A stretch of 64,000 nucleotides of DNA. It comes from an uncultured Gemmatimonadota bacterium (GTDB lineage Bacteria > JAAXHH01). The position numbers and the translations under genes were made by a program. Below, piece after piece: positions 4,699 through 52,855 of this stretch (the stretch's first letter is position 1; every line of letters begins with the position of its first letter). Location of the stretch: NCBI GenBank assembly GCA_951812955.1, contig OX638340.1, positions 2,272,001 to 2,336,000 of the forward strand. The letters run 5' to 3'. The notes under the pieces are model-generated. The model had not been told where the DNA came from, did no database searches, and was given only the letters and a program-made list of their open reading frames with translations.

Positions 4699-5181
4699 AT
4701 GAACGTGGAGAACGAATTCAGGCAGGACATCTCGAACCGCTACTTGAAGTCCGTGGAAGAAATCAACCGGATCATGTACAGCGGCCGTCTGCATGAGTGG
4801 CAGGGGATGGATCTATCGATTTCCCAGTTCAATACCCTTGTCATGCTGAAGCAGATGGGACCGATGCGCATGGGTATGATTTCCTACTATCTGAAGAACA
4901 CGCTTGCCGCCACCACATCGATCGTAGACCGTCTGGAGAACAAGGACCTGGTGATTCGGACCAAGGATCCCGAAGACAGAAGAGTGGTCATCTGCGAATT
5001 GACGGAACACGGGCAGAAAGCAACGGAGCGATTCTGGCGAGTCGCGCGGGAGGCGGCCTTGAGGGTAGCCAGCAAGTGGGACCTGAAGCAGTTCGAATCA
5101 GTGGTCGAGGCGCTGGAACTGGTCTTGCAGACCCATAAGGAGATCGTTCAGTCCGGCACATCTACAAAGCCTGCCGAATAA
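4699..5181 (+). CDS. MarR-family transcriptional regulator (paralogue 2)
   Basis: 160-aa ORF: ...LSISQFNTLVMLKQMGPMRMGMISYYLKNTLAATTSIVDRLENKDLVIRTKDPEDRRVVICELTEHGQK.... Shares the C-terminal W(D)xxQFESVVExLE motif with paralogue 1. Confidence 0.85.
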   Translation: MNVENEFRQDISNRYLKSVEEINRIMYSGRLHEWQGMDLSISQFNTLVMLKQMGPMRMGMISYYLKNTLAATTSIVDRLENKDLVIRTKDPEDRRVVICELTEHGQKATERFWRVAREAALRVASKWDLKQFESVVEALELVLQTHKEIVQSGTSTKPAE

Positions 5182-5218
5182 CCCACGCAACAATCTACTA
5201 AGCCTGCCAAATAACCAC
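5162..5218. repeat. 33-bp-period degenerate duplication spanning the marR-2 stop codon
   Basis: ctacaaagcctgccgaaTAAcccac (5162-5186) and ctactaagcctgccaaaTAAccac (5195-5218). Confidence 0.7.
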
Positions 5219-5223
5219 TGACA

Positions 5224-6195
5224 TCAAGATGAAGAAGAACAGGTAAGCATGAAGTGCCGCGCAGCGCCGATGATGCCGGCGTCGTCGCCGAGTTTGGCAG
5301 GCACGATCCGCAGTATGCCGGCCGACCACTTGTAGGCCCGCCGCGCCACCTCGGCGCCGATGGGATTGAAGATTAGATCGCCCGCCTTAATCACGCCGCC
5401 TCCAATAACGATCAATTCGGGATTCAGCAGGTTGGTGAGGCTGGAAACGGCCGTACCGAGCAGCGTGGCGGACCGGTGCATCACTTCCCGCGCCGTATCG
5501 TCGCCCTGGCCGGCGGCCTCGGCGACCATGGCCGCATCGATTCGGTCCAGGTTGCCCCCGCTCATTTCCCTTAATACGCTCTTCCGGCGACCGTGCACCA
5601 GTTCCCGCGCCTGTTCGGCGATGGCCGTCGCCGAAGCATAGGCTTCCAGGCATCCCGGCGCGCCGCAGCCACACATCCTGCCGTTCTCCACGACGGTCAT
5701 ATGGCCGATCTCGCCGCCCGCGCCGTTGGAGCCGCGCCAGACTTCGTTGTTCATGATGATCGCGCCGCCCACGCCCGTCCCCAGGGTAATACATATGACG
5801 TTCGCCTTGCCGGCGGCGGCGCCTACCCAGTGCTCCCCGATGGCCGCGGCGTTGGCGTCGTTCTCGATCGTCACCGGCAGTCCCAGGCGTTCACGGAGGA
5901 TCGACTGGAGCGGAAGATCCACCCATTCCGGCACGTTCGGCGCGTATACCACGATCCCTGAATCCTCCGGAATCAACCCGGGCGTACCCACGCCCACGCC
6001 GGCCACGCGGCCCCTTCCGCAGGAGTCCATGGTCATCTCGACGCAGGTCACCAGCCGGTCGATCACCTCGCCGGCGGTGCGGCTGCCCGATATGGATTGC
6101 CAGGCCCTGTGGGATATGCGGCCGCCGTCGTCCACTACGGCGCTGTTGACATTGGTCCCCCCCAGGTCCACGCCTATGACCAGGTCTCGCTTCAT
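5224..6195 (-). CDS. glk: ROK-family glucokinase
   Basis: Real start at MKRDLVIGVDLGGTNVNSAVV (ATP-binding DxGGT). ROK signature ...GHMTVVENGRMCGCGAPGCLEAYAS (Zn Cys motif). The 808-aa track ORF is an out-of-frame N-terminal over-extension across gpmI. Confidence 0.85.
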   Translation of the reverse strand: MKRDLVIGVDLGGTNVNSAVVDDGGRISHRAWQSISGSRTAGEVIDRLVTCVEMTMDSCGRGRVAGVGVGTPGLIPEDSGIVVYAPNVPEWVDLPLQSILRERLGLPVTIENDANAAAIGEHWVGAAAGKANVICITLGTGVGGAIIMNNEVWRGSNGAGGEIGHMTVVENGRMCGCGAPGCLEAYASATAIAEQARELVHGRRKSVLREMSGGNLDRIDAAMVAEAAGQGDDTAREVMHRSATLLGTAVSSLTNLLNPELIVIGGGVIKAGDLIFNPIGAEVARRAYKWSAGILRIVPAKLGDDAGIIGAARHFMLTCSSSS

Positions 6196-9370: not shown

Positions 9371-9542
9371 GCTCGATCTCCCTTTCTATGCTGTTTTTGC
9401 CCTGCCATTTACAACTATGCATAATACCGGGCACGCGTCCCGGCGTCAAACGATTACGGTCTATCTGCGACTGCCTCTTCCCCTTCCCATCCGGTTTCGC
9501 CAAGCGTCAGTCCGCCGGCCACACCCCGCGCTTCGAGCAATT

Positions 9543-9636
9543 CCTGCCTCAGTTCAGATTCGCGTCCCGGGTCGAAACGGTCACGCCGTCCTGCCTCAGT
9601 TCAGATTCGCGTCCCGGGTCGAAACGGTCACGCCGC
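9543..9636. repeat. exact 47-bp-period tandem duplication spanning the lon stop codon
   Basis: cctgcctcagttcagattcgcgtcccgggtcgaaacggtcacgccg occurs at 9543-9588 and again at 9590-9635. The upstream (coding-sense) copy encodes ...GGVTVSTRDANLN*. Confidence 0.9.
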
Positions 9637-12049: not shown

Positions 12050-12565
12050 GTCTTACCTCGCTTTCCCTGCCCTTGTGCCGCGTCCTCGGGCGTCCTCAAG
12101 AGGTGGCCGTCGCGAGACTCGGTTAGCCCTCGACCGTCAGTGAACGTCGCCGGGCCTGTTTCCATTCGCATGGCCATGGGAAGCGCCTCGCGGCTGCTTG
12201 ATTCATTATACGCACCAACCGGCCAATACGCTTCATTTGGCCTGGATTTCTACCGTACTACAGCAACATAGGGTGCAAACTCCATGCCACGATGATTCCG
12301 TGTCGACGACTTGATGATTCCGTGCCTCCTTCACGATGCTTCTGGGCCGACGGCATGGTAAATTCGCGCCACGCCAGGATTCTATTCGCGTATATGTGCC
12401 AATTTGGCATATCAGGTCGCACAAACTGCCATTTTAGCATGTGGCTTACTACAGAATCTCACACTATTTGGTCGGCAACTTCATCCCTCCGCTCGAATCC
12501 GTGTATGCCACGGCCTTCGCATAGCTATTCCGAACCGCGCCGGAGGTTTTTCTGCCCAGACCGTA

Positions 12566-12649
12566 CTGCGCCTGTGTGATCTGCTGTCCGGACCGCGCTG
12601 CGCCAGTGTAATTTGCTACCCGGACTGCGATACGCCTTGTGTGTTCTAC
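12566..12649. repeat. ~31-bp tandem repeat x2.5
   Basis: ctgcgcctgtgtgatctgctgtccggaccgcg / ctgcgccagtgtaatttgctacccgga / ctgcgatacgccttgtgtg..., within the 780-bp gene-free region. Confidence 0.7.
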
Positions 12650-12830: not shown

Positions 12831-13298
12831 ATGAAACGTCCTTTCATTCGGATCTTGACGACCACGCTGTCATGCTTTCTTATCGCGGGATTGGCCATGG
12901 CGGGTTGCGGCGGCGAAGGCGGCGGAAGCCAGGACCATGCCGAAGAACCGGCCGAAAGCGAGGCGCCCGACCCGAACACCGAGGCGCGCCAGGAGTACAT
13001 GAGAGAGATCGCGCAGCTCTGCGAAGGGATCGCCCTGGCGATCGAGGAAGGATCCGTGGGGACGATCGGCGCCGACGTGTCGAATCTCAAGGGGGTCATG
13101 GAGGAAGTGTCTACGATGCCTCCGCGATACGATTCTTCGAGATTCGGGTTCTACGCCTCCGACTTCCAGATACGCGCCGACACGCTCATCGCAGCTGCGG
13201 AGACCGGTTCGGCCATCGAGGCCGACTCCGCGATGCAAGCCCTCGCGATCACCTGCGGCGTTTGCCATTACAACTGCAAGTTCCCGGCCGATCCGTAA
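12831..13298 (+). CDS. lipoprotein class II c-type cytochrome (cytochrome c'/c556-like)
   Basis: Start at MKRPFIRILTTTLSCFLIAGLAMAGCGG (lipobox). ~155 aa, predicted helical, with a single CxxCH (CGVCH) 10 residues from the C-terminus, the hallmark of class II cytochromes c. Confidence 0.65.
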   Translation: MKRPFIRILTTTLSCFLIAGLAMAGCGGEGGGSQDHAEEPAESEAPDPNTEARQEYMREIAQLCEGIALAIEEGSVGTIGADVSNLKGVMEEVSTMPPRYDSSRFGFYASDFQIRADTLIAAAETGSAIEADSAMQALAITCGVCHYNCKFPADP

Positions 13299-13366
13299 TT
13301 CGCGGTTAGTTCCCGGCCGACCCGTAAATATCCGGCAAGTTCCCGGCCGATCCGTAATTCCCGCCA
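13279..13366. repeat. ~30-bp tandem repeat x3 spanning the cytochrome c' stop codon
   Basis: agttcccggccgatccgTAAttcgcggtt / agttcccggccgacccgTAAatatccggca / agttcccggccgatccgTAAttcccgcca. Confidence 0.9.
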
Positions 13367-13376
13367 AGGAGGAACC

Positions 13377-14371: not shown

Positions 14372-15607
14372 ATGCCGACCATCAGGCCCTACGACCCGGA
14401 ACGCGATCGAGACGCGATCATCCGGGTCTGGCGCGAAGTACATTGGATCACCAGCGACGTGCAGGCCAAGTGGGCGCCGCTGTTCATGGAGAAAACCCGG
14501 ACCGACGTGGCGGAGGTGAACGGCGAAGCGGAGTGCCAGGCTTCATCGACCGACGGGACGTTCCGCTACCAGGACGAAGACCTGGCCATGTCCGCCATCG
14601 TGGGCGTGACGACCAGCCGCGTCGCCCGCAAGCAACGTCTCGCCCAGCGGGTTACGGCGCACCGCATTGCCGAAGACGCCGCCCGGGGGGCGGAGATCTG
14701 CATGCTGACCATGTTCGAGCAGGGATTCTACGACCTGATGGGATTCGGCACGGGTCCCTACGGACACAGGGTGCGGTTCGATCCCGCCGACCTCACGATC
14801 GACCGGCCCTTCCGGGTGCCCAGGCGCCTGACCGCCGACGACTGGGAAATGATCCATTCCGCCATGGTAAACCGCAGGTTGACCCACGGTGGCTGCAGGC
14901 TGTATCCGGCGGAGTTGCTGCAGGTCGAACTGAATCACTCGGAGAAATCCTTCGTGCTGGGCTACTGCGATGGTCCAGGCGGCGAGCTGACCCACTTCTT
15001 CTGGGCGAGCGACAATGAAGAGCACGGTCCCTGCTATGTCTACATGATGGCCTACCAGGATCATTCCCAGCTCATGGAACTGCTCGCGCTCATGAAATCT
15101 CTCGGAGACCAGATTCGGCTCTTCCAGATCGTCGAACCCCCCGACGTGCAAATCCAGGACCTGATCAGGCAGCCCTTTCGGGCCAGGATCGTATCCGAAA
15201 AAGGTCCCTTCAACACACTGATTCGGGGTGATGGGTACTGGCAGGCCCGGATCTGCGACCTGGAAGCCTGCATGGCCAAGACCCGCCTGCACGGCCCGTC
15301 GACGCGGTTCAATCTTTCCCTGAGCGATCCCATCGAGAAGTACCTGGACGCCGGCGCGTCCTGGCGAGGTCTTAGTGGGGAGTACGTGGTCACGCTGGGT
15401 CCCGAGTCCCAGGCTGAACCCGGCGCCGACCCCGCACTACCTACGCTGGCCGCCTCCGTCGGCGCCTTCACCCGTCTCTGGCTCGGCGTTCGTCCCGCCA
15501 CCGGCCTGGCCGTCACCGACGACCTGTCCGGTCCCCCCGAACTGCTGTCCGCGCTGGATCGCACCCTGCGCCTGCCCGTGCCGGGGATGTGCGGGTGGGA
15601 GTTTTAG
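14372..15607 (+). CDS. GNAT N-acetyltransferase with C-terminal SCP2-like domain (Eis-like architecture)
   Basis: Start at MPTIRPYDPERDRDAIIRVWREV. ~411 aa, a length and layout typical of Eis/GNAT-SCP2 proteins. The family call is by pattern only. Confidence 0.6.
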   Translation: MPTIRPYDPERDRDAIIRVWREVHWITSDVQAKWAPLFMEKTRTDVAEVNGEAECQASSTDGTFRYQDEDLAMSAIVGVTTSRVARKQRLAQRVTAHRIAEDAARGAEICMLTMFEQGFYDLMGFGTGPYGHRVRFDPADLTIDRPFRVPRRLTADDWEMIHSAMVNRRLTHGGCRLYPAELLQVELNHSEKSFVLGYCDGPGGELTHFFWASDNEEHGPCYVYMMAYQDHSQLMELLALMKSLGDQIRLFQIVEPPDVQIQDLIRQPFRARIVSEKGPFNTLIRGDGYWQARICDLEACMAKTRLHGPSTRFNLSLSDPIEKYLDAGASWRGLSGEYVVTLGPESQAEPGADPALPTLAASVGAFTRLWLGVRPATGLAVTDDLSGPPELLSALDRTLRLPVPGMCGWEF

Positions 15608-15723
15608 ATTTCCGCGACTTTTCCTACTAATGCTATAACTGCATTTCCCGGCGGTTCTTCACGATTCGATGAACCCCTGCCGCGAACGTACTGCTCGGTC
15701 GAGCTAACTTTAAGAGGTTCGTG

Positions 15724-15965
15724 ATGGTTCTCAAGATCAATTCAAAAAGCAAATCACCTTACCGACAAGTGTTCTGGATGCCCTCGGTGTGGATCCCGGT
15801 GACCAGATTGAAATCATCGAGGGACCTGATGGATTCATCCTCAGGCCCCGGAAAATTGACTATTCAAGTCTGGGGACATTGAAGGAGAAAACTCGACGCG
15901 GTCACGACACCTTCGATATCCAGGTCTTCCGCGAGCAGCCCTATAGCCCATCGCTAAAGGAATGA
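15724..15965 (+). pseudogene. AbrB/MazE/VapB-type antitoxin gene interrupted by a frameshift in an A5 run
   Basis: RBS AAGAGG, then ATG at 15724 (MVLKINSK...). The SpoVT/AbrB core KKQITLPTSVLDALGVDPGDQIEIIEGPDGFILRPRK...SLKE* is read in the +1 frame from 15747 to TGA 15963-15965 and has no start codon of its own. One extra A in the run 15744-15748 would restore MVLKINSKKQITLP. Confidence 0.6.
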
Positions 15966-16289
15966 TACCTCGGTGCTTGCCGAAATCAAGGAAGTGCAGG
16001 ATCGTGCGGGTTTCTGCGTAGGCAGATTTTGGAGATCCATCGGTAAATGCGTTGAAAGTTGGAGTGGTGGAGATGGGGTTCCTCAAGCCACACTTGAAGA
16101 ATACAAACATTAGTTGGTGTGTCCGTGATTGTGTCCTCATTACATTGCGGAACCAGACTGAATAGTATATCATACTCGATATACATTTGGATCTTACGAT
16201 CCAGTGGAAGGAAGAGTTCCCAGGACCAACCCAATCTTGGATTTGTGGATCTTATACAAGCGTTGCGACGATCAGTGGAGCGAACAACG

Positions 16290-16505
16290 ATGAAAAACGA
16301 GTTCACTGCGATTATCGAAAGGGACGAAGAAATATACATTGCTTTTTGTCCCGAAATACCGGAAGCGAATGGCCAAGGCGCGACCAAGGATGAAGCCTGC
16401 GAGAGCTTGGCAGAGGCCATTGCCCTTGTATTGGAAGATCGCCGGGAAGAGGGGCTTCGCGGAGCAGCCCCTGGAGCTATTCGAGAAAGAGTCACCATTT
16501 CGTGA
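16290..16505 (+). CDS. hicB: HicB-family antitoxin (short UPF0150 form)
   Basis: MKNEFTAIIERDEEIYIAFCPEIPEANGQGATKDEACESLAEAIALVLEDRREEG.... Internal start within track ORF 16119-16505. Confidence 0.8.
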   Translation: MKNEFTAIIERDEEIYIAFCPEIPEANGQGATKDEACESLAEAIALVLEDRREEGLRGAAPGAIRERVTIS

Positions 16506-16690
16506 AACGGAGGAGTTTAATCCGACATCTCCAAAGACACAACTGTCAACTCAAACGCGAAGGACGTTCGCATTCATTGTGGTGTAATTCGATAACGGGG
16601 GCTGTCGAAACAATTCCTCGTCATACCGAGATTTCTAACCGTCTGGCGCGTAAGATATGCCGAAATCTCTCAGTTCCTGATATACTGTAA
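16502..16690 (+). CDS. hicA: HicA-family mRNA interferase toxin
   Basis: 62 aa: MKRRSLIRHLQRHNCQLKREGRSHSLWCNSITGAVETIPRHTEISNRLARKICRNLSV. The GTG start overlaps the hicB TGA (GTGA). Confidence 0.8.
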   Translation: MKRRSLIRHLQRHNCQLKREGRSHSLWCNSITGAVETIPRHTEISNRLARKICRNLSVPDIL

Positions 16691-16839
16691 CCATGACTAA
16701 TCGTCTTGTGATTTGATCAACAAAGTTGTTTGCAGAATTACCTGTTCTCCAGAAGTACCCCTCCCATCTGAAACAGCACTCCTCAAAGGCAATCTGAGTC
16801 AGCGTTACGACGTCAAGATGACGTTTATCTTCGAAGTAC

Positions 16840-18084
16840 TCAGCGCATGAAGCACGGAAGCGCCTGGCTGACCGCCGGTGGATGAACGATGCGCTTGACC
16901 AGACTGCCTGATCCGTCGTCCTGCCACTGGATCTGTATGCCCTTCAGGTCGCGCTGGGCGCCGGCCTGGGCGTCGCCGATCGGATAGACACCGAACGGTC
17001 CCAGGACAGTCAGTTTGGAGGTCGCAAACAGAAAGTTGCGTATTGACGCCCGGTCGATTTCCCCGGTGGGCGTAGCGGCCCGGTTGATGCCCTCCGCGAG
17101 CAGCTCCACGGCGCCGAAACCTGCGGCGGCCTGGTAGTCCGGCATCCTGTGGTAGGCCGCTTCGTAGCGTCGTACGAACATCTCGTTCGTGGCGATGTAC
17201 CCCTCCGTGCGGATCGTTGGATCCCAGGCCGCGTTGCTGATGACGCAGCGACCAACCGCGCCTACCTCGTTGATGAAGGTTTCCCCGCTCGCCAGGAGGA
17301 GGGACGTCAGGAGCGGTCTGTATTCCACGGCGTCCACGGCCCGCGCGAACGCGATCGCGTCGTCCGAGTATCCTCCGCCGATGAACAGATCGGCGCCCGC
17401 ATCCCGCGCCATGGCCGCCAGTGCCTCGTGGTCCACGCTGCCCAACGCGTAGGCCTGCTCCATAACGATGTCGAGCCCACTGTTCCGCGCCGCGTCGCGT
17501 ATGCCCTGGGCCACCGCAGTGGGAAAGGCCGTATCCTCCCACACCAAAGCCACCGTGCGGGCGCCGGACTGCGCGGCCAGTTCCACCGATCCCTCGAGAT
17601 AAGTCGGGGCCGGATTCGTCACCTGCACGCTCCACTGCCGTCCCCGGTTCGCCCAGATCACGGGAGCCGCCGCCGCCGAGGAGACGAGCGGGATGCCGGC
17701 TGCTTCCGTCACGCCGATCACGGGTTCGGTGATCCCGCTGCTGTAGGGGCCCAGAAAGGCGGTGATCGAATCCGATGCGATCATCTCCTGATAGAGGCGA
17801 ACGCTCGCATCCGCGTCGCTCCCATCGTCGCGTATCACCAGCTGCACCTTCCGCCCGCCGATGCCGCCCTTCTCGTTCAGCATTTCGACGGCGAGCCTAT
17901 AGCCGCGGCTGACTTCCTCCCCGGGCGTGCTGAGGCGGCCGGTCTCCGCCACGGCCGCCCCAAGCGTGATGGGTTTCGGCGCCGGCGCCGGCGTTGACTC
18001 CGGCCCCATCGGATCTTCGTTGCCGCACGCGGCCAACGACATTGCCAGCGCCATTGCCAGCGCGCCAAGCCATCTTTGTCTCAT
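16840..18084 (-). CDS. ABC transporter substrate-binding lipoprotein, LivJ/LivK (branched-chain amino acid) family
   Basis: 414 aa. Lipobox MSLAAC. ...ITLGAAVAETGRLSTPGEEVSRGYRLAVEMLNEKGGIGGRKVQLVIRDDGSD... is typical of type I periplasmic binding proteins. Confidence 0.8.
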   Translation of the reverse strand: MRQRWLGALAMALAMSLAACGNEDPMGPESTPAPAPKPITLGAAVAETGRLSTPGEEVSRGYRLAVEMLNEKGGIGGRKVQLVIRDDGSDADASVRLYQEMIASDSITAFLGPYSSGITEPVIGVTEAAGIPLVSSAAAAPVIWANRGRQWSVQVTNPAPTYLEGSVELAAQSGARTVALVWEDTAFPTAVAQGIRDAARNSGLDIVMEQAYALGSVDHEALAAMARDAGADLFIGGGYSDDAIAFARAVDAVEYRPLLTSLLLASGETFINEVGAVGRCVISNAAWDPTIRTEGYIATNEMFVRRYEAAYHRMPDYQAAAGFGAVELLAEGINRAATPTGEIDRASIRNFLFATSKLTVLGPFGVYPIGDAQAGAQRDLKGIQIQWQDDGSGSLVKRIVHPPAVSQALPCFMR

Positions 18085-18114
18085 GATAACACCTCATTGA
18101 TCAGAATTGTCCCA

Positions 18115-18435
18115 TCACAACTTCGGATCCGGATCCCCGGTATTCACGCCGCCTTCCTGTATCAGCAGGTAATTCATCGTCGATGCGGCCTGGCGAAACT
18201 TCATCGCCTCCTGGTAGGCCGGATCGTTGTACCATGCCTCGGCCTGCGCCTTGCTGGAAAATTCCAGAATTACCATCCTCCCGTCGTAATCATTGCCCTC
18301 GACGCAGGCGATCTCCTCGCCCCGCGTCAGGAACTTCCCCCCGTACTTCTTGACGATGGGAGGCGTCCGGTCGGTGTATTTACGGTAGATGTCAGGGTCG
18401 TGGATGGACATCATGGAGATGACATAAGCAGGCAT
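18115..18435 (-). CDS. DUF1330-family protein
   Basis: 106 aa: MPAYVISMMSIHDPDIYRKYTDRTPPIVKKYGGKFLTRG...VILEFSSKAQAEAWYNDPAYQEAMKFRQ. Confidence 0.75.
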   Translation of the reverse strand: MPAYVISMMSIHDPDIYRKYTDRTPPIVKKYGGKFLTRGEEIACVEGNDYDGRMVILEFSSKAQAEAWYNDPAYQEAMKFRQAASTMNYLLIQEGGVNTGDPDPKL

Positions 18436-18578
18436 TGAAGGTGCTCTCCTGTCTGGTTGGCGTGACCTGGTATGGACTCACTTCAGGGTAGTTCAGCAAG
18501 AGCCGACTTGGCTTCCCAAAACACACGCTGAGCCACAAAGGATGCTTTGGAGGCGGAAGCACCTGTGGCGTCATGGCG

Positions 18579-20246: not shown

Positions 20247-20270
20247 GAGTCTGATCCTCTCCGAGTGTGC

Positions 20271-21059: not shown

Positions 21060-21138
21060 GGGCACTCCTGAAAGGTTCTGCAGCAACCGGCTATGGACTA
21101 CTTGATCCAGATGCAGCCTACAAATGGTTTTTCAACAT

Positions 21139-21192
21139 CTGATTATGGACTACTTGACGCGACTGATTATGGACTACTTGTGATTATGTACC
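21139..21192. repeat. 24-bp tandem repeat x2 plus partial (core GATTATGGACTACTTG; a further degenerate copy at 21091-21104)
   Basis: ctgattatggactacttgacgcga / ctgattatggactacttg / tgattatgtacc, in the spacer between the permease stop and the next gene's start. Confidence 0.85.
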
Positions 21193-21222: not shown

Positions 21223-21267
21223 CTGGACACGGTTATTCATACCTTCTGGACACGGTTATTCATACCT
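21223..21267. repeat. exact 23-bp-period tandem duplication spanning the permease stop codon
   Basis: ctggacacggttattcatacct at 21223-21244 and 21246-21267. The second copy encodes ...RYE* of the minus-strand gene (TAA at 21256-21258). Confidence 0.9.
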
Positions 21268-34718: not shown

Positions 34719-34779
34719 TGAAAAGTTGCATGTTGGTAACTATTGCGATGCCGGAACTTACGTAGTGCATTCCCGACTG

Positions 34780-36381: not shown

Positions 36382-36463
36382 TGCTGTCTCCTTTCGGCTA
36401 ATTACTGAAAAGCGGTTCGTTGTAATCTACCGTTCTTGATCTCGATGAACAGATTATCTGACT

Positions 36464-37057: not shown

Positions 37058-37169
37058 GGCAAACCAACTCGTAGGGGGAAATGACGGAAAGAAATGGAAC
37101 CTGCTTTAACATATGCAGGTAATGCCTGCAACCTACCCTTATTCGCGGCCTCAGTCAAACAAATGCGGC

Positions 37170-39541
37170 CTACTCGCTCCGCAGGGTGTCCGCCGGGTTG
37201 AGCATAGCGCTTCGGAAAGTATGCACGCTCACGGTGAGCAGGGCGGTGGCCAGGACAACTAGTCCCGCCGCGACGAAAGGCGCAGCACCGATCTCCGTCC
37301 GGTAGGCGAAGTCCGCCAGCCACTCGTTCATGAGCCACCAGGCGGCCGGCCAGGCCAGGACGTTGCCGATCACCACGAGGACGACGAACTGCCTCGACAG
37401 CAGGCCGACTATATCTGAGACCGCGGCGCCCATCACCTTGCGGATGCCGACTTCCCGCGTGCGGCGCGCGATGTCCAGCGACACGAGTCCATATACGCCG
37501 AGGCAGGCGATCAGCAGGGCGAATACCGCGGAATAGGTGAAAATCAGCGCCAGGTTGTTCTCATCCTGGTAGAACCGTTCTATATCGTCTTCCATGAAGA
37601 AATACTCGTAGGGCGTCTCAGGCGCTGTCCCCTTCCACGCGTCCTCGAGCAGGGAAAGCGTGGTTGGCAGATCCCTGCCGCTGACCCGGACCAGGAGGAA
37701 GCCGTAACTGACCGAAGTGTTACCCATGGATGTGGGATTGAGGGAGAGTATAATCGGATCGATCTCCTGGTGCAGCGACTGGAAATGGAAGTCCTTGACT
37801 ACGCCGATTACCGTATACCCATGGGGCAGTTTGCGCCCGATCGGATCTTCCCATTCCAGCTTCTTTGCCGCGGCCTCGTTGATGATGCACGATTGGAACT
37901 CGTCGTTTACGAATTCGCTGGAAAAATCACGGCCACGGACGAGGTTCAGTTCAAGCGTCTCCAGGTAATCGCGGTCCACGGTCGCCATGAACGCTTCCAG
38001 CTTGTTTCCGTCCGGTCGGTGTAGGCAACCTGGGGCAAGAAATGCCCCTGACCAAAGGTGCTGGAAGTGCCGGAAACCAGGAGTATGTCTTCGTACGGTA
38101 TCACTTTGCTGCGAAAGATCTCCAGGTCGTTTGAATTGAAGGGGGCCTGGATGACTACCACGTTGTGCGGGTTGAACCCCAAATCCCCCGTCCGCACAAA
38201 GTCCAGCTGCCGGGTCATGATGAGAATTGAAATGACGAGCAACGCGGACAACCCGAACTGCACGACCATCAAGCCGCGCACGAAGAGATTCGGCCCTCCG
38301 ATCTGAACCTGTTGCCGGAAGATGGTGACGGGGTTGTAGTGTGAGAGCACCAGGGAAGGATAACTGCCGGAAACCAGGGCGACCAGCACGGTCAAACCCG
38401 TCAGCGCGGCCAGCGTGGATCCGTTCGTCAGGTAGTCCAGCACGAGGGACTTTCCCGCCAGCATATTGAAAACCGGAAGGAACAGGTGGGCCAGGGCCAC
38501 GCTCAGCACCAGGGCGAAGCAGCACAGCGCCGCGGTTTCGCCCAAGTGCTGTCCCATGATCTGGGTTCGGCGCGCGCCGTAAACTTTCCTGACACCGACC
38601 TCTTTCACACGCGAAGACGAACGGCAGACGGCCAGGTTCATGAAGTTGACGCAGGCGATGAATAGTACGAGCAGCGCCGTGCAAATCAGGATGTAGGACC
38701 GGTTGGGATCGCTGGTGGGACCCAGCCCGAATTTGACTTCCTGATCCAGGTAGATATCGGTGATGGGTTGCAGGATCAGATAGGGCGACGAGTAGGCCGG
38801 GAAATGGGTTTCGACGAATTCCGGCAGTTGACTGAGGAGCGATTCTACTCGATCCGGATCCCCGAGTTCGATGAAAGTGGCCGTGGACGAATAGTTCCAC
38901 TTTCCGATGGCATTCGATATCCAGGGGTTTATTTCCGGCGCCTTGTCAAAGGGTATGAGCAGGTCGAACCGAATACTGGAGTTATCCGGTCCGTTCTCCG
39001 CGACGCCGGTTACGGTCAGCGGAATGCCCTGTACCAGGAGCGTCCTGCCCGTCGGAGACTCCTGGCCGAAGTACTTCGCCGCGGCGGATTTGCTGACGAC
39101 CACTGAATTCGCCTCGCCGAGGGCCGTACCGGGATCGCCTTCGATCATCGTGAAGGAGAACATCTCGAAGAAGGACGGATCGCAGAAAAGGGCGTTCTCC
39201 TTGCGGAACGTATCTTCTCCGATGCGAATATCGGATGGATATTCCGTTATGCGCACGGTCCGGACCACGTCGGGATATTGCTGCTCCAGGGTAGCCGCGA
39301 GCGGGAGGGGAGTTCTCGCGCTTATGAACGGGTTGTCGTCGAAATCCACTCCACCGGCTGCGACCTGGTAGATCCGGTCCGATTTCTCGTGGAAGGCGTC
39401 GTAGGTCCACTCGTGGCGGACGAAGAGAAAGATCAGGAGGCAGCACGCGATACCGGTCGACAGGCCAAAAGTATTGATGAAGAAATAACCCTTGTTGGCG
39501 AACAGGTACCGCAACGCGATGACGAGGTTGTTTTTCACCAT
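37170..39541 (-). pseudogene. orphan FtsX/MacB-type ABC permease (copy B) with a 1-nt frameshift near 38010-38020
   Basis: The N-terminal 508 codons are read in ORF 37946-39541 (...VAYTDR then nonsense). The C-terminal ~280 codons (PDGNKLEAFMATVDRDY...TLRSE*) are in the frame of ORF 37170-38900. Copy A reads AYTDKDGNKLEAY across this point. Observed tacaccgaccggacggaaac appears to lack one base. Confidence 0.7.
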
Positions 39542-39617
39542 GATCGTATTGCCTCCTGTCGCTTACGCATGCAAGCAGGAAAACGCACCTGGGGAAAGAC
39601 GATCCTGCAATGGCAAA

Positions 39618-39648
39618 GGGGATCTACGGTTTCGACCCGTCGATCCCC
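39618..39648 (-). other. conserved hairpin in the Big_2-permease spacer (copy B)
   Basis: Sequence identical to 34688-34718. Confidence 0.4.
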
Positions 39649-39708
39649 TTAAAGGTTGCATGTTGGTAACTATTGCGATTGGGAACTTACGTTGTGCATT
39701 CCTGACTG

Positions 39709-41772
39709 TCAGGGGATGACAAACGTATTCTCACTACGGCGAAAACTCCTATCATCGTCAAGCGAAATATCACCAACCAGTCTATACTCACCGGCGACTT
39801 CCGGATTGTATGGGCAAGCGTCGAATTCCACCCGTGTGTCCTCGATGTCTTCCCATGTACTGCCCATATCGTCGCTTCGCTGCCATACGGAGTAATGGAC
39901 CGTAATGGTGACACCTAACGGAGTTGGGCGGTTGTTTAGTTCTCCACCTAAGAGTGAACTTGCGCAGTTTACTATAGGTATTGTAGCAAGTCCTGGGACC
40001 GTAAAAACCAACCGACCGGGCTCGACCCGCACACCTTCCCACGGGACGTAGGTGACTTCATCCACCGTAATGGTCACCGTGATGCTCACCATGGCCGACA
40101 CGTCGCCGGACGCGGCCGTAACTTCGGTCATGCCGTTGCCCACAGCTTCTACCAACCCATCCTCGTCCACGGTGACCACGTTCTCGTCACCGCTCGTCCA
40201 CGTGACGGCCGGTTCGGCAATGGCATTGTCGTTCCCGTCGCTGACGGAAACCATGAGTTGCAGGGTCTGTTCGATCTCGGTCAGCGTGGTGGCATCGGGT
40301 GCGACCTCGATGCTGATGCCGGCCGGAACCTGGGCGACGGTGATCGACGCAGTCCCCATAGCGCCTCCGGCCTGGGCCGTGATCTCCGCCATGCCGTTGT
40401 CCACCGCGGTGACCACGCCGTTCTCGTCCACGGTGGCCACGGCGTCGTCGCCGCTCGACCAGGTCACCATCACGTCCTCCATCGCGTTTTCGTGCTGGTC
40501 CAGTACGACGGCCGCGAGTTCCACGGTGTCGCCGATCGCTCCCAGCGTGTGCGCGGCTGGCTCGATCGTGATGCTCGTTGCCACGGGCTCGGATATCACC
40601 ATGACCGTGATACTCACCATGGCCGATACGTCGCCGGATGCGGCCGTAACTGCGGCCATGCCGTTCCCCACCGCTTCTACCAAACCATCCTCGTCCACGG
40701 TGGCCACGTTTTCGTCACCGCTCGTCCACGTGACGGCCGGTTCGGCAATGGCATTGTCGTTCCCGTCGCTGACGGAAACCATGAGTTGCAGGGTCTGTTC
40801 GATCTCGGTCAGCGTGGTGGCATCGGGTGCGACCTCGATGCTGATGCCGGCCGGAACCTGGGCGACGGTGATCGACGCAGTCCCCATAGCGTCTCCGGCC
40901 TGTGCCGTGATCTCCGCCATGCCGTTGTCCACCGCGGTCACAAGCCCGTTCTCGTCCACGGTGGCCACGGCGTCATCGGCGCTTGACCAGGTCACCATCA
41001 CGTCCTCCATCGCGTTTTCGTGCTGGTCCAGCACGACGGCCGCGAGTTCCACGGTGTCGCCGATCGCTTCCAGCGTGTGCGCAGCGGGCTCGATCGTCAG
41101 GCTCGTCGGCACGGATACGGATACCGTGATGGACGCACTGGCGGACAGGCTGCCGGATGTGGCCGTGATCTCAGCCATCCCGTTACTCACCGCCGTTACA
41201 AGGCCCGCCCCGCTCACGGTCGCCACGGCGTCGTCGCCGCTCGACCAGGTGATGGACTGGCCGGACATGATGTTGTTCCGCTGATCCCGCACCGTAGCCG
41301 ACAACTGTACCGTTTCCCCGATCGCCTTCAGCGTATGGGACGTCGGTGCGACCGTGATCCGGGTCGGCACCGGCTCGGCCACCGTGATGTTCGCAGTGCC
41401 CGTCGCGTTGCCGGACTGCGCCCTTATTTGCGCGGCGCCGTTGGCCACGGCCGTCACCAGGCCATTTCCGCTGACAGTCGCCACCGCGGTATTGCTGCTC
41501 GACCAAGTCACCGCCTGGCCGGTCATCGGATTGTTGTTCTGGTCCCTCACCATGGCCATCAGTTGCACGGTCGCGCCAATCGTCGCCAGCGTGTGCGAAG
41601 ACGGCGTGACAGAAATGCTCGTCGCAACGGGCGCAGGCGGTGGAGCAGGCGGGGTCGGTGTGGACGGCTCGGGACTCGTCGGGCTGCTGTCCCCGCCACC
41701 GCATCCCGCCAGAAAAACCAGGTACAAGGATGCCGTGATCTTGGCGAACACGCGACTGTATGGACCAAACAC
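39709..41772 (-). CDS. lipoprotein with six Big_2 domains and a Cys-containing C-terminal domain (copy B)
   Basis: 687 aa. The first ~355 aa are identical to copy A. Contains an extra 176-aa (528-bp) two-domain unit (d3-d4 repeated as d5-d6, ~95% aa identity). The C-terminal domain is related to, but diverged from, copy A. Confidence 0.85.
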   Translation of the reverse strand: MFGPYSRVFAKITASLYLVFLAGCGGGDSSPTSPEPSTPTPPAPPPAPVATSISVTPSSHTLATIGATVQLMAMVRDQNNNPMTGQAVTWSSSNTAVATVSGNGLVTAVANGAAQIRAQSGNATGTANITVAEPVPTRITVAPTSHTLKAIGETVQLSATVRDQRNNIMSGQSITWSSGDDAVATVSGAGLVTAVSNGMAEITATSGSLSASASITVSVSVPTSLTIEPAAHTLEAIGDTVELAAVVLDQHENAMEDVMVTWSSADDAVATVDENGLVTAVDNGMAEITAQAGDAMGTASITVAQVPAGISIEVAPDATTLTEIEQTLQLMVSVSDGNDNAIAEPAVTWTSGDENVATVDEDGLVEAVGNGMAAVTAASGDVSAMVSITVMVISEPVATSITIEPAAHTLGAIGDTVELAAVVLDQHENAMEDVMVTWSSGDDAVATVDENGVVTAVDNGMAEITAQAGGAMGTASITVAQVPAGISIEVAPDATTLTEIEQTLQLMVSVSDGNDNAIAEPAVTWTSGDENVVTVDEDGLVEAVGNGMTEVTAASGDVSAMVSITVTITVDEVTYVPWEGVRVEPGRLVFTVPGLATIPIVNCASSLLGGELNNRPTPLGVTITVHYSVWQRSDDMGSTWEDIEDTRVEFDACPYNPEVAGEYRLVGDISLDDDRSFRRSENTFVIP

Positions 41773-41854
41773 TGCTGTCTCCTTTCGGCTAATTACTGAA
41801 AAGCGGTTCGTTGTAATCTACCGTTCTTGATCTCGATGAACAGATTATCTGACT

Positions 41855-43144
41855 TCATGCACGCAGGCCCTTCATACTCTCCCGGGCCGCTTCGAGGGTC
41901 CGGTCGATGTCTTCTTCGGTATGGGCCAGGGACACAAACCCCGTTTCAAGGCGCGAAGGCGCCAGGTAGACGCCCCGGTCCAGCATATTCCAGAAGTATC
42001 GCCCGTACGTATCCGCGTCTGACGTGGAAGCTGCATCGAAATTGTTGACGGTCTGATCTGTGAAGAAGGTACACATCATGGAGCCCACACGGGTCAGGCA
42101 GGCCGGGACGCCGGCCGCTTCCGCCGCGGCGCGAAGGCCGTCGCCGAGGCGGGCGGCCAGGGATTCCAGCCGGTCGTAGACCCCGGGTTCCTGAAGCTGC
42201 CGCACCGTTTCATATCCAGCGGTCATGGCAAGCGGATTGCCGGACAGCGTGCCGGCCTGGTAAACCTCACCGGCGGGCGCCACGGTTTCCATGATTTCCC
42301 TGCGACCGCCATAGGCCCCCACGGGAAGTCCTCCCCCGATGATCTTGCCCAGGCAGGTCATGTCGGCCGAGATGCCGAATCGTTCCTGCGCTCCGCCGAA
42401 TGCGATCCTGAATCCCGTGATGACCTCGTCAAAAATCAGAATGATCCCCCGCTTCTCCGTCTCTTCCCGAATGGTTTCGAGAAAGCCTTCGGCCGGAGGG
42501 ATCATGCCCATGTTGCCGGCGACCGGCTCTACGATCACGCAGGCGACGTCGCCGCCCCGCTCCGCCAGGGTGCGCCGGACGGCCTCGACGTCGTTGTAGG
42601 GTAGATTGATGGTCATCTTCGCCAGGTCCGCAGGCACGCCGGGACTGTCGGGGATGCCGAATGTCGCGGCGCCGGAACCGGCCTGGATGAGAAAGCTGTC
42701 TCCGTGGCCGTGGTATCCCGCCTCGAATTTGACCGCCAGGTCGCGCCCCGTGTATCCGCGGGCGACGCGCAGGGCGCTCATGGTCGCTTCCGTGCCGGAG
42801 TTGACCATGCGTATCAGGTCGATGGACGGGAAGGCGGTCCTGACCAGTTCCGCCAGCCTGATCTCGGCTTCGGTGGGCGTGCCGAAACTCGTACCCCGTT
42901 CACAGGCCTTCTTCAGGGCCTCGACCACGGCGGGATGGCCGTGGCCCAGGATCAGCGGTCCCCAGGATCCCAGGTAATCGATGTACTCGTTGCCGTCCAC
43001 GTCGTAGACCCTGGAACCCGCGCCCCGGTCCATGAAGACGGGGCTTCCTCCAACCCGCCCGAAATTCCGCACGGGGCTGTTCACCCCGCCGGGCATGGAT
43101 CGCTGGGCCTGGTCGAAGAGGGTACTGGATCGGGAACGGTTCAT
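41855..43144 (-). CDS. hemL: glutamate-1-semialdehyde 2,1-aminomutase
   Basis: 429 aa: ...MPGGVNSPVRNF..., ...SGTEATMSALRVARGYTGR..., ...LGKIIGGGLPVGAYGGRREIME.... Confidence 0.95.
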   Translation of the reverse strand: MNRSRSSTLFDQAQRSMPGGVNSPVRNFGRVGGSPVFMDRGAGSRVYDVDGNEYIDYLGSWGPLILGHGHPAVVEALKKACERGTSFGTPTEAEIRLAELVRTAFPSIDLIRMVNSGTEATMSALRVARGYTGRDLAVKFEAGYHGHGDSFLIQAGSGAATFGIPDSPGVPADLAKMTINLPYNDVEAVRRTLAERGGDVACVIVEPVAGNMGMIPPAEGFLETIREETEKRGIILIFDEVITGFRIAFGGAQERFGISADMTCLGKIIGGGLPVGAYGGRREIMETVAPAGEVYQAGTLSGNPLAMTAGYETVRQLQEPGVYDRLESLAARLGDGLRAAAEAAGVPACLTRVGSMMCTFFTDQTVNNFDAASTSDADTYGRYFWNMLDRGVYLAPSRLETGFVSLAHTEEDIDRTLEAARESMKGLRA

Positions 43145-46539: not shown

Positions 46540-47516
46540 TGGGATTCCGTGGTCCGCCTGGTCGGCCCGGACGACTTGGACTGCGTGTTACCTTCGGCCT
46601 GCTCGGCCTGCTCGGCTTGTTCGGCCCGTGCCATCACCGCTTCCGCCAGCCGGCGGCCCAGTTCCGGTCCTTCTTCCGGCAGTCCCCGCAGGCCGTGGCG
46701 CGCGATCCAGCTGCCGTCATCGGCGGCCAGCACGGCGTCCAGCTCCAGGCAATCGTCCCGGATTCTCCCCCAGGCGCCAACCGGGGTATGGCAACCGCCG
46801 CCTATACGATAGAGAAAAGACCGCTCCGCCATCACCGCCTGCCTGGCCGGGAGGTCCTCGATTCGCCTTGCCGCTTCCAAGGTGGGATGATCGTCCTTAC
46901 GGGTTTCAATCGCGAGCGCCGCCTGGCCGACGGCCGGCATGCAGACCTCCGGCGGCAATATCTCGGATATGCGGTCATTCCAGCCCAGTCGCTGCAATCC
47001 CGCCACGGCCAGCACGATGGCGTCCGGACCGTCCGGTTCTTCCAGTTTCTTCAACCTGGTGTCTATATTCCCTCGAATGCCCGAAAAGCGCAGATCCGGC
47101 CGGTAATGTTGAAGCTGCGAGCGCCGCCTCGGACTCCCCGTGGCGACCAGGGCGCCCGATGGGAGCTCGTCGAGTCTGGCGCTGTCGCGGCTGATCAGGG
47201 CGTCCCGCACGTCCACGCGCTCCGGCACCGCGGCGATCGCCAATCCATCGGGAAGGGACGTGGGCAGGTCCTTGAGACTGTGTACGGCCATGTCGATCTC
47301 TCCCGAGACCAGGGCCCGTTCCAGTTCCTTGACGAAGACGCCCTCGCCGCCGAAGGTGTCCAGGGAAGCGCTTCTGTCAGAATCGCCCTTCGTCTTGATG
47401 ACGCGCACCTGTACGGACAGGCCGCCCTGGCCCGCTTCCAGGTCCTTGGCCACCGAATGGGCCTGGACGAGGGCCAGCCTGCTGCCGCGGGTGCCTATGA
47501 TCAATGAAGAAGCCAT
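46536..47516 (-). CDS. hemC: hydroxymethylbilane synthase (porphobilinogen deaminase)
   Basis: 326 aa: MASSLIIGTRGSRLALVQA..., ...IKTKGD..., ...AVHSLKDLP..., ...GGCHTPVGA.... The C-terminal tail carries an (AEQ)3 repeat. Confidence 0.95.
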   Translation of the reverse strand: MASSLIIGTRGSRLALVQAHSVAKDLEAGQGGLSVQVRVIKTKGDSDRSASLDTFGGEGVFVKELERALVSGEIDMAVHSLKDLPTSLPDGLAIAAVPERVDVRDALISRDSARLDELPSGALVATGSPRRRSQLQHYRPDLRFSGIRGNIDTRLKKLEEPDGPDAIVLAVAGLQRLGWNDRISEILPPEVCMPAVGQAALAIETRKDDHPTLEAARRIEDLPARQAVMAERSFLYRIGGGCHTPVGAWGRIRDDCLELDAVLAADDGSWIARHGLRGLPEEGPELGRRLAEAVMARAEQAEQAEQAEGNTQSKSSGPTRRTTESQ

Positions 47517-50359: not shown

Positions 50360-50507
50360 GGATGTAACCTCGAAGTGATACCGCCTCGATAATTCAGACC
50401 CGATAAGATACCGTAAAATACCGTCCTATCATGTATTTATCAAGTCGAAAGGGGTGCGGGCCGGGTCGCCTGGGTCGCACGCGCCTGGATCGCCTCGCTA
50501 GGGTCGC

Positions 50508-51425
50508 CTAGTCCACGTTTCTCATTTGTGCCAGTATATCCATGCCTACGCTTCGGCCCCACGCCTCCATGACCCGCGCGAACAGTGGGCCGGGCTTGCC
50601 GTCGCCGATGGGCGTGTTGTTGATGCGCGTACAAGGCGCGAGACAATACGGCGTACTCGTCAGCCACGCCTCGTCGGCATTGACGGCGTCGTATGGCTGA
50701 AGATCCTTCTCGACCCAGTCCAGCCCCAGGTCGGGCGCTAGTTCCCGCAGCGTGACCAGACTTACGCCTTCGAGGATGTTCCGGCTGGTGGGCGTATAGA
50801 TAGTATCATTTTCCACCACGACGAAGTTGGCCCCCGAGCACTCGGTGAGGTTGCCGTCCAGGTCGAGCAGCAGCGAGGTGGCGGAGGGGTCGACGGACTG
50901 CGTCTGCCGATCGGCCAGCCAGTAGTGCAGGCGCGAGCGGTTTTTCGTCTTGGGATCGACGCACTGGGGCGGTACGTGCCGGATGGAGGGTGTGACCACG
51001 TGGACGCCCTGCTCGAAGAAGGGGCGCCACACGGTGAAGGGCAGCGGAAAGGAGTGGATGCACAAGGTAGGCGAAAGGCGCACCGGCTTACCGGCGCTGC
51101 CCGCGTAGATCTGGTTTTCCCCGGGGGTTACGAAGTGGACGACGCCCAGGTCCTGCTCCGGGCCGATCAGCCTGCAGTTGGTCTCGATGAGGCTTCGTGT
51201 GCGTTCGACCAGGCCATCGTGGTCCGTATCCAGCTCGAAACCGGCGTATTTGCACGACCGCAGGAGCCGCCGCACATGCTCTTCCAGGCGAAACGGCGCA
51301 TGCCCGAAAGTGCGGGTCATTTCGGTCACGGTGGCCCCCAGGACAATCCCCAGGTCATAGATATTCAAATGGGCCTCGGAAGCTGGGACGAATCCATCGT
51401 TGAGATAGACGACCGGTTCATTCAT
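50508..51425 (-). CDS. class IV (fold type IV) aminotransferase, branched-chain/D-amino-acid aminotransferase family
   Basis: 305 aa: MNEPVVYLNDGFVPASEAHLNIYDLGIVLGATVTEMTRTF..., ...EGVSLVTLRELA.... Confidence 0.75.
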   Translation of the reverse strand: MNEPVVYLNDGFVPASEAHLNIYDLGIVLGATVTEMTRTFGHAPFRLEEHVRRLLRSCKYAGFELDTDHDGLVERTRSLIETNCRLIGPEQDLGVVHFVTPGENQIYAGSAGKPVRLSPTLCIHSFPLPFTVWRPFFEQGVHVVTPSIRHVPPQCVDPKTKNRSRLHYWLADRQTQSVDPSATSLLLDLDGNLTECSGANFVVVENDTIYTPTSRNILEGVSLVTLRELAPDLGLDWVEKDLQPYDAVNADEAWLTSTPYCLAPCTRINNTPIGDGKPGPLFARVMEAWGRSVGMDILAQMRNVD

Positions 51426-51490
51426 AACGCGTTTTTCTCCTGTCTATAAAACCGTAACTCATGGGTCTTCAGTGCAACGGGTCCACGCCG

Positions 51491-51542
51491 GATGGCGCCT
51501 TTCGTTCGCCGCGCCAGATGGCGCCTTTCGTTCGCCGCGCCC
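51491..51542. repeat. 26-bp tandem duplication
   Basis: gatggcgcctttcgttcgccgcgcc(a) at 51491 and 51517, in the divergent spacer between the aminotransferase gene and era. Confidence 0.9.
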
Positions 51543-51862
51543 CGTATTCACGTCGCATTCGAAATACAAACTACACCCTCGGCCGTGACAATTAAACAGC
51601 GAATGATAAAAACATCCGGTTCACGGTCGCGCGGGCAGCCGTAACAGGCCGTTCGCGGGCAGGCCTTCAGTGGCCTGTACACGGGAAGGCCGTAACTGCC
51701 CGTGACAGGCCGATACTGGCAATTATCGGGCATGTCCCACCTGTTCCCGTCGTGCGGCCAACAGTCTTTTCTCTTTTGTTAAATCATAGTATTACGTATA
51801 AAGAACGTTCCAGTCCTATCTTGACTCATCGTACGCCCCTGGCTGTCAAACGGCAGTTTCTC

Positions 51863-52792
51863 ATGGCACCCACTGAACATATGGAAAGCACGGACAGCGC
51901 CGGATCGCATCGCGCAGGCTTCGTCGCCCTGGTCGGGAAACCGAATGTGGGCAAGTCCACCCTGATGAACGCGTTCCTTCAGCACCGGCTTTCCATCGTC
52001 ACCCCCAGGCCCCAGACCACCCGTCAACGGGTGCTTGGCATTCTGACGAAGGATACCTGCCAGGTCCTGATCCTGGATACGCCCGGGTTGCTCGAACCCG
52101 GCTACCGGCTCCAGGAATACATGCTGCAGTCCGCGGTCCATACGCTGCACGACTCCGATGCGGCCGTGGCCATCGTCGACGCCACCCGTTTCGAACGCGA
52201 TCTCGACGACCGCGTCGTCGGGTTCCTCGAGCATAGCCGCGGACCGGTGATCCTGGCCATAAACAAAATCGACAGGGCATCCAGAACTTCCCTGCTTCCC
52301 ATGATCGACCGGGCCGCAGGCCGTTTCCCCTTTGCCGAGATCGTACCCGTGTCCGCCCTCAAGGGAGACGGTCTCGACCCTTTGCTCTCCGCCGTCATCC
52401 GCCTGCTCCCATCCGGGCCGGCACTGTATCCCGCCGACATGCTCACCGATCAACCGGAACGGTTCTTCGTGGGTGAAATCATCCGGGAGCACCTGTTTCT
52501 GGCCCTGCACGAGGAACTGCCCTACGCATCGGCCGTGATCGTGGAGGACTTCACGGACCGGCCCAACGGCACAGCCTTCATACAGGCGGGTATCATTATC
52601 GAGCGGACATCCCAGAAGGGCATCATCATCGGCAGGAACGGCCGCATGCTGAAGCGCATCGGCACGTCCGCGAGGAAGGCAATCGTCGAATTCCTCGACC
52701 GTCCCGTCTATCTCGACCTGCGGGTCAAGGTCAGGCCGTCCTGGCGTAAGAAAGAACAGGATCTGAAGCGTCTGGGCTACACCACGAGGTGA
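51863..52792 (+). CDS. era: GTPase Era
   Basis: Start at MAPTEHMESTD.... G1 GKPNVGKST, ...DTPG..., ...NKID..., and a C-terminal KH domain (...IIGRNGRMLKRIG...). Confidence 0.9.
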   Translation: MAPTEHMESTDSAGSHRAGFVALVGKPNVGKSTLMNAFLQHRLSIVTPRPQTTRQRVLGILTKDTCQVLILDTPGLLEPGYRLQEYMLQSAVHTLHDSDAAVAIVDATRFERDLDDRVVGFLEHSRGPVILAINKIDRASRTSLLPMIDRAAGRFPFAEIVPVSALKGDGLDPLLSAVIRLLPSGPALYPADMLTDQPERFFVGEIIREHLFLALHEELPYASAVIVEDFTDRPNGTAFIQAGIIIERTSQKGIIIGRNGRMLKRIGTSARKAIVEFLDRPVYLDLRVKVRPSWRKKEQDLKRLGYTTR

Positions 52793-52855
52793 GCGTCGCC
52801 GAGGCGAGCATCTGGGCTACACCGCGAGGTGAGTGTCGCCGAGGTGAGCGTCGCC
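52771..52855. repeat. 40-bp-period tandem duplication spanning the era stop codon (with 15-bp sub-repeat)
   Basis: tctgggctacaccacgaggTGAgcgtcgccgaggcgagca / tctgggctacaccgcgaggTGAgtgtcgccgaggtgagcgtcgcc. Confidence 0.9.

Follow-up and report, generated by a model that had tools for sequence, protein, structure and literature searches.

Short tandem duplications, many of them spanning stop codons, in a lineage of uncultured Gemmatimonadota bacteria

We analyzed a stretch of 64,000 nucleotides (nt; hereafter, the window) from an uncultured Gemmatimonadota bacterium (contig OX638340.1 of assembly GCA_951812955.1, positions 2,272,001 to 2,336,000), in which the last codons of five unrelated genes, together with the stop codon and a few downstream bases, are present in two or three direct tandem copies. 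The lineage to which the window belongs has about ten times more short tandem duplications (units of 12–70 nt) than other bacteria. The explanation that we favor, and consider the probable one, is a lineage-specific, genome-wide excess of tandem duplication, often flanked by microhomology, whose products are filtered by selection in a compact genome. The finding looks like an unusual mutation habit under selection and not like a new genetic device.

Stop-spanning arrays and the density of short tandem repeats

Tandem arrays were identified by self-comparison of the sequence at shifts of 12–120 nt (match +1, mismatch -2), and hits had to score 16 or more and to align over no less than 0.6 of the shift; Tandem Repeats Finder (TRF) served as a second method beside this fixed-threshold detector. 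The gene map of the window contains 48 genes, and 46 stops were counted. Gene identities were established using Pfam, and Rfam and ARAGORN were run on the window for RNAs. The five arrays that span stop codons are as follows.

5160–5216, + strand: end of marR; 33-nt repeat (19 nt coding, TAA, 11 nt downstream) with a diverged second copy
9542–9635, - strand: end of lon; exact 47-nt repeat, two copies, 100% identical (37 nt coding, TGA, 7 nt downstream)
13276–13368, + strand: end of the cytochrome c' gene; three copies of ~29–30 nt, TAA included
21223–21267, - strand: end of the FtsX/MacB permease gene; 23-nt repeat, two copies, 100% identical (9 nt coding, TAA, 11 nt downstream)
52767–52856, + strand: end of era; 40-nt repeat, 2.1 copies (23 nt coding, TGA, 14 nt downstream), with a nested 15-nt repeat

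All five had been noticed in the original prediction, which was made from the letters of the window alone, and all five are real: four were found by TRF and the degenerate marR repeat, missed by TRF, was found by our detector, as were the others, and is visible in the sequence. The lon unit was confirmed by translation to consist of the final codons, TGA and a few downstream bases. Pfam confirmed MarR and the product of the convergent ROK gene, identified the low-GC permease as FtsX/MacB and confirmed APH, encoded convergently to era, the identity of era itself being backed by its homologs; the match of cytochrome c' was weak (22.5 bits, below the cut-off). The coding part of the five units is 9–37 nt long and the downstream part 7–14 nt; among all stop-spanning units of the clade these ranges are 9–54 nt and 1–23 nt, respectively. 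The copies abut, with nothing inserted between them. At marR the duplicate takes up most of the 42-nt spacer to the ROK gene, which would be ~9 nt long if the duplicate were removed.

As the window had been picked for its apparent enrichment, independent data were needed. The clade is uncultured, and depositors have labeled its members Gemmatimonadota or Latescibacterota. Relatives of Lon at 89–90% identity were found in two metagenome-assembled genomes (MAGs) only, and relatives of Era at 81–95% identity in about 40 cases, a few of them labeled Gemmatimonadota. Syntenic loci L001 and L002 (the two Lon MAGs) cover positions 0–30 kb of the window and L161–L168 cover 42–63 kb. The closest relative, L169, lies on a 3.85-Mb circular contig and is 92–94% identical to the window at the nucleotide level over 19.5–49.8 kb; L172, which overlaps L164, and L173 were added as further loci. 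The background consisted of 160 unrelated bacterial loci (2.30 Mb), 111 of them at least 10 kb long; a scan of metagenome contigs with Lon yielded distant relatives only (57% identity or less), and these served as background sequence. The detector gave the following densities.

Window: 21.9 arrays per 100 kb
L002, L161, L162, L164, L166 and L167: 19–31 arrays per 100 kb
L172: 35.8 arrays per 100 kb
L173: 26.8 arrays per 100 kb
L169: 8.9 arrays per 100 kb
L001: 0 arrays per 100 kb
160 unrelated loci (2.30 Mb): 1.87 arrays per 100 kb
Unrelated loci matched by G+C content: 2.15 arrays per 100 kb

The density is thus high (9–36 per 100 kb) in nine of the ten related loci, and the maximum among the 111 longer unrelated loci is 13.9 per 100 kb. 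TRF densities agree with this difference (29.7 vs 6.2 per 100 kb). The 14 arrays found in the window, compared with none in five block-shuffles of it, comprise five stop-spanning, six intergenic and one start-spanning array and two arrays inside genes. In the 2.3 Mb of the background, 21 arrays were intergenic, 20 were in genes and a single one spanned a stop, that is, about one in ~2,000 genes if ~1 gene per kb is assumed, as compared with five among the 46 stops of the window.

Arrays inside genes are also several times denser in the clade than these 20 in the background. All 15 of them have units divisible by three, and about half lie no farther than 75 nt from a gene end. The rise in the number of in-gene arrays, together with their frame, suggests that the duplication process acts within genes too and that selection decides which products survive.

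Age and turnover of the arrays

The arrays of the window are young and their units turn over rapidly, apart from the second copies at era and marR, which are diverged (90% and ~88% identity, respectively) and hence old rather than fresh. The comparison of orthologous gene ends showed that the copy number differs at lon, the permease gene, era and the cytochrome c' gene. The lon end is present in one copy in both L001 and L002. Compared with L169 (94% identity), which has one copy, the permease end of the window carries an insertion of 23 nt; L169 also lacks one copy of a spacer repeat at 21135–21159 (18 nt plus ~6 nt of filler). The era end has one copy in all relatives, two of which have instead duplicated the end of the convergent APH gene, as judged by eye. 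The cytochrome c' end is present once in L001, about twice in L002 and three times in the window, and the marR end of L002 carries a different repeat (by eye).

Other gene ends behave likewise. At the ALAD end, the window has a compact arrangement with a 15-nt spacer, L161 three copies and L169 a decayed version; at the ccsA end, L169 has a 39-nt array of 2.8 copies and the window no duplication; hemA, HEM4 and a gene of 205 residues have stop-spanning arrays in several relatives. The copy number of the in-frame arrays (the beta-lactamase N-terminus, hemC and an oxidoreductase gene) varies among relatives as well. L164 and L165, co-occurring strains from the same ENA assembly (ERZ24894577), share 98.7% identity, and the six indels of at least 14 nt (14–57 nt) that separate them are all gains or losses of a tandem unit. 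These indels are located in the hemA-stop array, after another stop (two units), across the adh stop, in one spacer and in the M48 gene, where one in-frame 57-nt unit is involved and the predicted protein length shifts with the array (298 vs 317 residues).

Several observations concern the surroundings of these genes. A conserved promoter-like element (TTGACG-N17-TATTAT) is located 3' of lon, at ~9424–9455 (- strand) in the window and at 12450–12490 in L001. The lon stop overlaps the -35 hexamer of this element in L001; in the window, it is ~130 nt away, the distance being made up of the 47-nt duplicate and ~84 nt of unknown origin. The permease gene (21256–23859) has a lower G+C content (~0.52) and belongs to a set of four paralogs, each of ~800 residues, in the region from 21 to 35 kb; as it is present in L169 and absent from L001, L002, L172 and L173, it was inserted recently in this sub-lineage. 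In L162, positions 17900–20600, between adh_short and MOSC, contain an IS1595-family transposase and small open reading frames (ORFs) that are absent from the window and from the other relatives.

The excess at stop codons and its explanations

If the 14 arrays of the window were placed uniformly, 0.64 stops would be expected to be covered, while five are (P = 0.0003). Under a stricter null model each array was collapsed to one unit and only protein-preserving placements were allowed, that is, those wholly intergenic or including a whole stop or start codon. The claim that stop-spanning cases are too many for chance holds under this model as well: five of the 12 non-coding arrays span a stop and 1.43 are expected (P = 0.009). 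In the first eight loci, the window included, 15 of 38 non-coding arrays are stop-spanning (expected 6.3, P = 4.5e-4), and in L169, L172 and L173 six of eight (expected 2.04, P = 0.004). When the 40 or 80 nt before each start were forbidden, the ratio of observed to expected fell from 2.4 to 2.0 and 1.7, respectively. The stop excess is real but modest, and its size is partly set by how much intergenic DNA is assumed to tolerate insertions. Several factors may contribute to the residual 1.7–3.5-fold excess: 5' regions may be constrained, old arrays may have been taken as neutral spacer, the copy still in coding use may decay more slowly, and 3' ends may truly be targeted.

If duplication is genome-wide and filtered by selection, short duplications with units of 12–70 nt would arise at a high rate across the whole genome, often between short microhomologies, and selection would purge nearly all of those landing inside genes. 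Three classes would survive: in-frame units, mostly near protein termini; units wholly within spacers; and units with a complete stop codon, which would not alter the protein, as the ribosome stops at the first copy. Ancestral 3' spacers would have been tiny, the stop abutting the next promoter, ribosome-binding site or convergent stop, so that a unit of 20–70 nt in the tolerated zone would nearly always reach back over the stop; this reach, by which downstream signals are avoided, would explain why the downstream part is only 1–23 nt long. Arrays, once made, would quickly gain and lose units and decay, and gene-end copies would then make up much of today's spacer sequence 3' of genes.

Two further observations agree with this scheme. 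Ancestral spacers were compact, the cytochrome c' stop of L001, for example, being located ~18 nt before the next start codon. The units are of local origin: in an all-versus-all comparison of 45 units, and in a comparison of the window units with the window, they matched only their own locus or the orthologous locus of a relative. Moreover, microhomology overhangs of at least 3 nt occur in four of the six distinct young two-copy arrays, as compared with 5% expected by chance. The molecular mechanism, and selection rather than targeting as the cause of the stop excess, are inferred.

Several points weigh against this explanation. The rate is uneven within the clade, L001 (0) and L169 (8.9 per 100 kb) having few arrays. 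The stop excess is 2.4–3.5 times the geometric neutral expectation in the window, the first eight loci and the three further loci, and a 1.7-fold excess survives the 80-nt upstream mask. Arrays covering only a start are about four times fewer than stop-spanning ones, despite equal geometry, and only one of the 22–23 non-coding arrays of the unrelated loci spans a stop, a share that is approximate since the background gene calls are rough, self-trained on ~20 kb each. The P values across relatives are inflated, as part of the arrays were inherited from common ancestors and the loci L172 and L164 overlap. Finally, the two youngest arrays are without microhomology (overhang of 0 at lon and -1 at the permease gene) and one new spacer copy carries ~6 nt of filler.

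Some of these points would be expected if the duplication process itself were aimed at gene 3' ends, for instance through breaks or template switching at the points of transcriptional or translational termination, and the excess were mutational, an explanation that is conceivable but less probable. Besides the residual excess, it agrees with the clustering of indels of at least 8 nt between the window and L169 or L161 at 0–30 nt from stops, with the presence of arrays at the hemA, HEM4, 205-residue gene and APH ends in several genomes, with units of different length at the same gene end (32 vs 63 nt at hemA) and with the lack of microhomology at lon and the permease gene. If so, this would point to an undescribed link between transcription-unit ends and duplication. 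Such a process does not predict the strong rise of in-frame arrays within genes; the position of the stop within the unit is variable over the whole range of the clade, duplications occur at convergent as well as co-directional gene pairs and on either strand, and the ratio is inflated by unannotated gaps, by decayed arrays taken as spacer and by the slower decay of coding copies. Of the lineage-specific mutational process suggested in the original prediction, the lineage specificity is borne out by the tenfold density, the relatives and the turnover, while specific action at gene ends is not, in-gene arrays being raised too. It is conceivable, albeit rather unlikely, that the clade has inherited a peculiar mode of replication or repair (weak flap processing or end-joining, for instance) that both yields the tenfold number of 12–70-nt duplications and is triggered preferentially at gene 3' ends, spacers being born of gene-end copies.

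The idea that duplicated ends are selected for a function, as backup stops, as 3'-UTR structures or terminators, or as regulatory RNAs, is improbable and already largely refuted. The pattern does recur at many gene ends in the clade, and the 33-nt array of marR sets its second stop in frame. This is the only such case in the window, the units of lon (47 nt), cytochrome c' (29 nt), the permease gene (23 nt) and era (40 nt) being out of frame, and in the clade only six of 21 stop-spanning units are a multiple of three, which is the chance proportion and leaves little of the earlier suggestion of spare stops. The suggestion of 3'-UTR structure fares no better: the folding z-scores (+2.1, +1.4, -0.2, +0.5, -1.95, -0.1 and +0.4) reveal no excess folding energy, the value of -1.95 stemming from a hairpin at the APH stop, outside the era repeat, and no Rfam family matched in the window. 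Furthermore, the arrays are not conserved, close relatives being single-copy or having arrays at other genes, and the second copies decay. A duplication fixing an overlap of convergent genes, suggested by the era/APH overlap in L167, was also considered; it suits era and marR and does not suit the three co-directional cases, and was rejected. Errors of assembly or polishing, against which the original prediction had warned, are a very improbable source of the arrays, and for the diverged and shared arrays they are excluded. The copies in most arrays are diverged (81–98% identical), orthologous arrays recur in MAGs obtained by different projects (L164/L166 and L166/L167), two pairs of records that were deposited separately agree completely (100% identity over 11–14 kb, the arrays included), and short-read and long-read assemblies show the same pattern. 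The two perfect arrays of the window (lon and permease) fall outside this argument, as they have no independent copy in public data, and an exact-protein look-up of the window Lon matched no record. Least probable of all is an origin from mobile or dispersed repeats (a REP, MITE or MIRU-like family) or from target-site duplication. Like MIRUs, some arrays lie between operon genes and can include a stop and the next start (L161 4692–4750, L162 4389–4533), but units of different loci share no sequence, no consensus unit is found in ~300 kb, and the units are copies of the adjoining gene end and are not palindromic; as for target-site duplication, the copies adjoin without an inserted element between them.

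Related systems and other features of the window

Literature searches retrieved no report of recurrent stop-spanning duplications in a bacterial chromosome. Microhomology-mediated tandem duplication (MTD) is reported to be universal and to increase when Rad27 is lost (bioRxiv 10.64898/2026.02.28.708716); in that preprint, as far as a search of its text for these terms goes, stop codons and intergenic placement are not mentioned. The clade arrays resemble MTDs in being head-to-tail copies of local single-copy sequence that can expand to arrays and in their copy-number variation within a population. Microhomology is present at four of the six young two-copy arrays, which would fit MTD, and is lacking at the two youngest arrays. 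The clade arrays differ in their fixed density, ~10 times that of the other sampled bacteria, and in the filler at one spacer copy. In cells deficient in Rad27/FEN1, insertions are tandem duplications, mostly flanked by short microhomology arms, and increase genome-wide without a matching rise in point mutations (bioRxiv 10.64898/2026.02.28.708716). The likeness of this signature to the clade arrays would be an analogy of mechanism only. Duplications under flap-endonuclease deficiency, described by Tishkoff and coworkers in 1997, are reportedly about 5–100 nt long.

The tandem repeats of Borg elements of Methanoperedens may also begin inside the end of an ORF and follow the same frame rule (PMC9879509). 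Like the arrays described here, they are genome-specific, young, fast-evolving and absent from relatives, and in both cases in-gene units are multiples of three (15/15 here), whereas intergenic units mostly are not (here, 6/21 of the stop-spanning units are) (PMC9879509). Borg repeats, however, are perfect, many-copy and A-rich and are carried by an archaeal extrachromosomal element (PMC9879509), while the clade arrays have two to four copies, many of them diverged, in a bacterial chromosome with a G+C content of ~61%. The definition of Borg repeats (perfect units, at least three copies, at least 50 nt in total) does not fit the arrays, most having 1.7–4 copies with mismatches. MIRU-VNTRs, described by Supply and coworkers in 1997, are said to be tandem units of 40–100 nt between operon genes, with ends overlapping the flanking stop or start and with variable copy number. 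MIRUs reportedly form one dispersed sequence family, while each locus here has its own unit copied from the adjoining gene. Tandem backup in-frame stops are similar in that a second stop follows shortly downstream of the first; here only one of the five window cases has its second stop in frame, and over all stop-spanning units in-frame second stops are as frequent as expected by chance.

If the arrays do reflect genome-wide duplication under selection, the clade would be a natural, lineage-wide case of a free-living bacterium whose mutation spectrum is prone to duplication, comparable to Borg elements and flap-endonuclease mutants, and would show gene-end copies serving as building material of downstream spacers in a compact genome. 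The C-terminal and N-terminal lengths of orthologs vary via gain and loss of units, and gene callers and aligners are liable to be misled at gene ends. The array loci are also potential high-resolution strain markers.

The remaining arrays of the window, to the first seven of which no strand is assigned, are listed below.

2120–2190: 27-nt array in a stretch without a confident gene call
4170–4228: 17-nt spacer array, 3.5 copies; both methods
4284–4404: 48-nt spacer array, 2.2 copies, 98% identical, with an internal sub-period of 23–25 nt; both methods
12552–12636: 32-nt degenerate spacer array; both methods
21139–21180: 24-nt spacer array; both methods
29576–29630: 19-nt array, 2.9 copies, in a spacer or in the N-terminal region of the 27030–29672 ORF; TRF only
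51486–51541: 26-nt array, 2.2 copies, 96% identity, in the divergent spacer upstream of era, with a 4-nt microhomology overhang; both methods
20096–20162, - strand: N-terminus of the beta-lactamase-fold gene; in-frame 18-nt (6-residue) units, 3.5 copies, 18 nt from the 5' end
46594–46626, - strand: near the C-terminus of hemC; in-frame 9-nt units, 3.7 copies, one unit more than in L161
62002–62063, + strand: start of the GFO/IDH/MocA oxidoreductase gene; in-frame 15-nt units, four copies (two more units in L161)
56690–56726, + strand: interior of the 56244–56879 gene; in-frame 21-nt units, 1.8 copies

The spacer repeats of the original prediction were largely recovered, five by both methods and the one at 29576–29630 by TRF only; the repeat at 25702–25837 is at chance level. 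The in-frame repeats at hemC, the oxidoreductase gene and the beta-lactamase N-terminus were likewise confirmed; Pfam confirms the beta-lactamase, whose array has one unit more in L169. The two weaker stop-associated cases did not stand: both GCGAYCC x4 at the aminotransferase end (50463–50510) and the M48 end, where the match is 9 nt long and the protein has the same length in the window and L161, are at chance level.

The ORF at 27030–29672 encodes 880 residues and is a paralog of the neighboring 806-residue gene; L169 is without it, the 806-residue gene directly preceding peptidase M29. At 15607–16840, 1.2 kb of lower G+C content (~0.48) contain no confident ORF and no Rfam match and are partly conserved in L002. 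Positions 34300–42300 contain a large direct repeat (~34.3–36.9 kb vs 39.2–42.3 kb). ARAGORN called three 93-nt tRNA-Gly(ccc) genes (35335–35427, 40198–40290 and 40726–40818) inside the repeated Big_2 coding sequence and antisense to it; these calls are probably false positives caused by the repeated protein domain. Compared with L169 and L161, the window has ~5 kb of additional DNA, with a partial copy of the hemL 3' end (ORF 36464–37057), a diverged FtsX/MacB copy split into ORFs 37170–37988 and 37946–39541, and a second Big_2-domain gene (39709–41772). The large repeat looks like a segmental tandem duplication, on a far larger scale than the short arrays.

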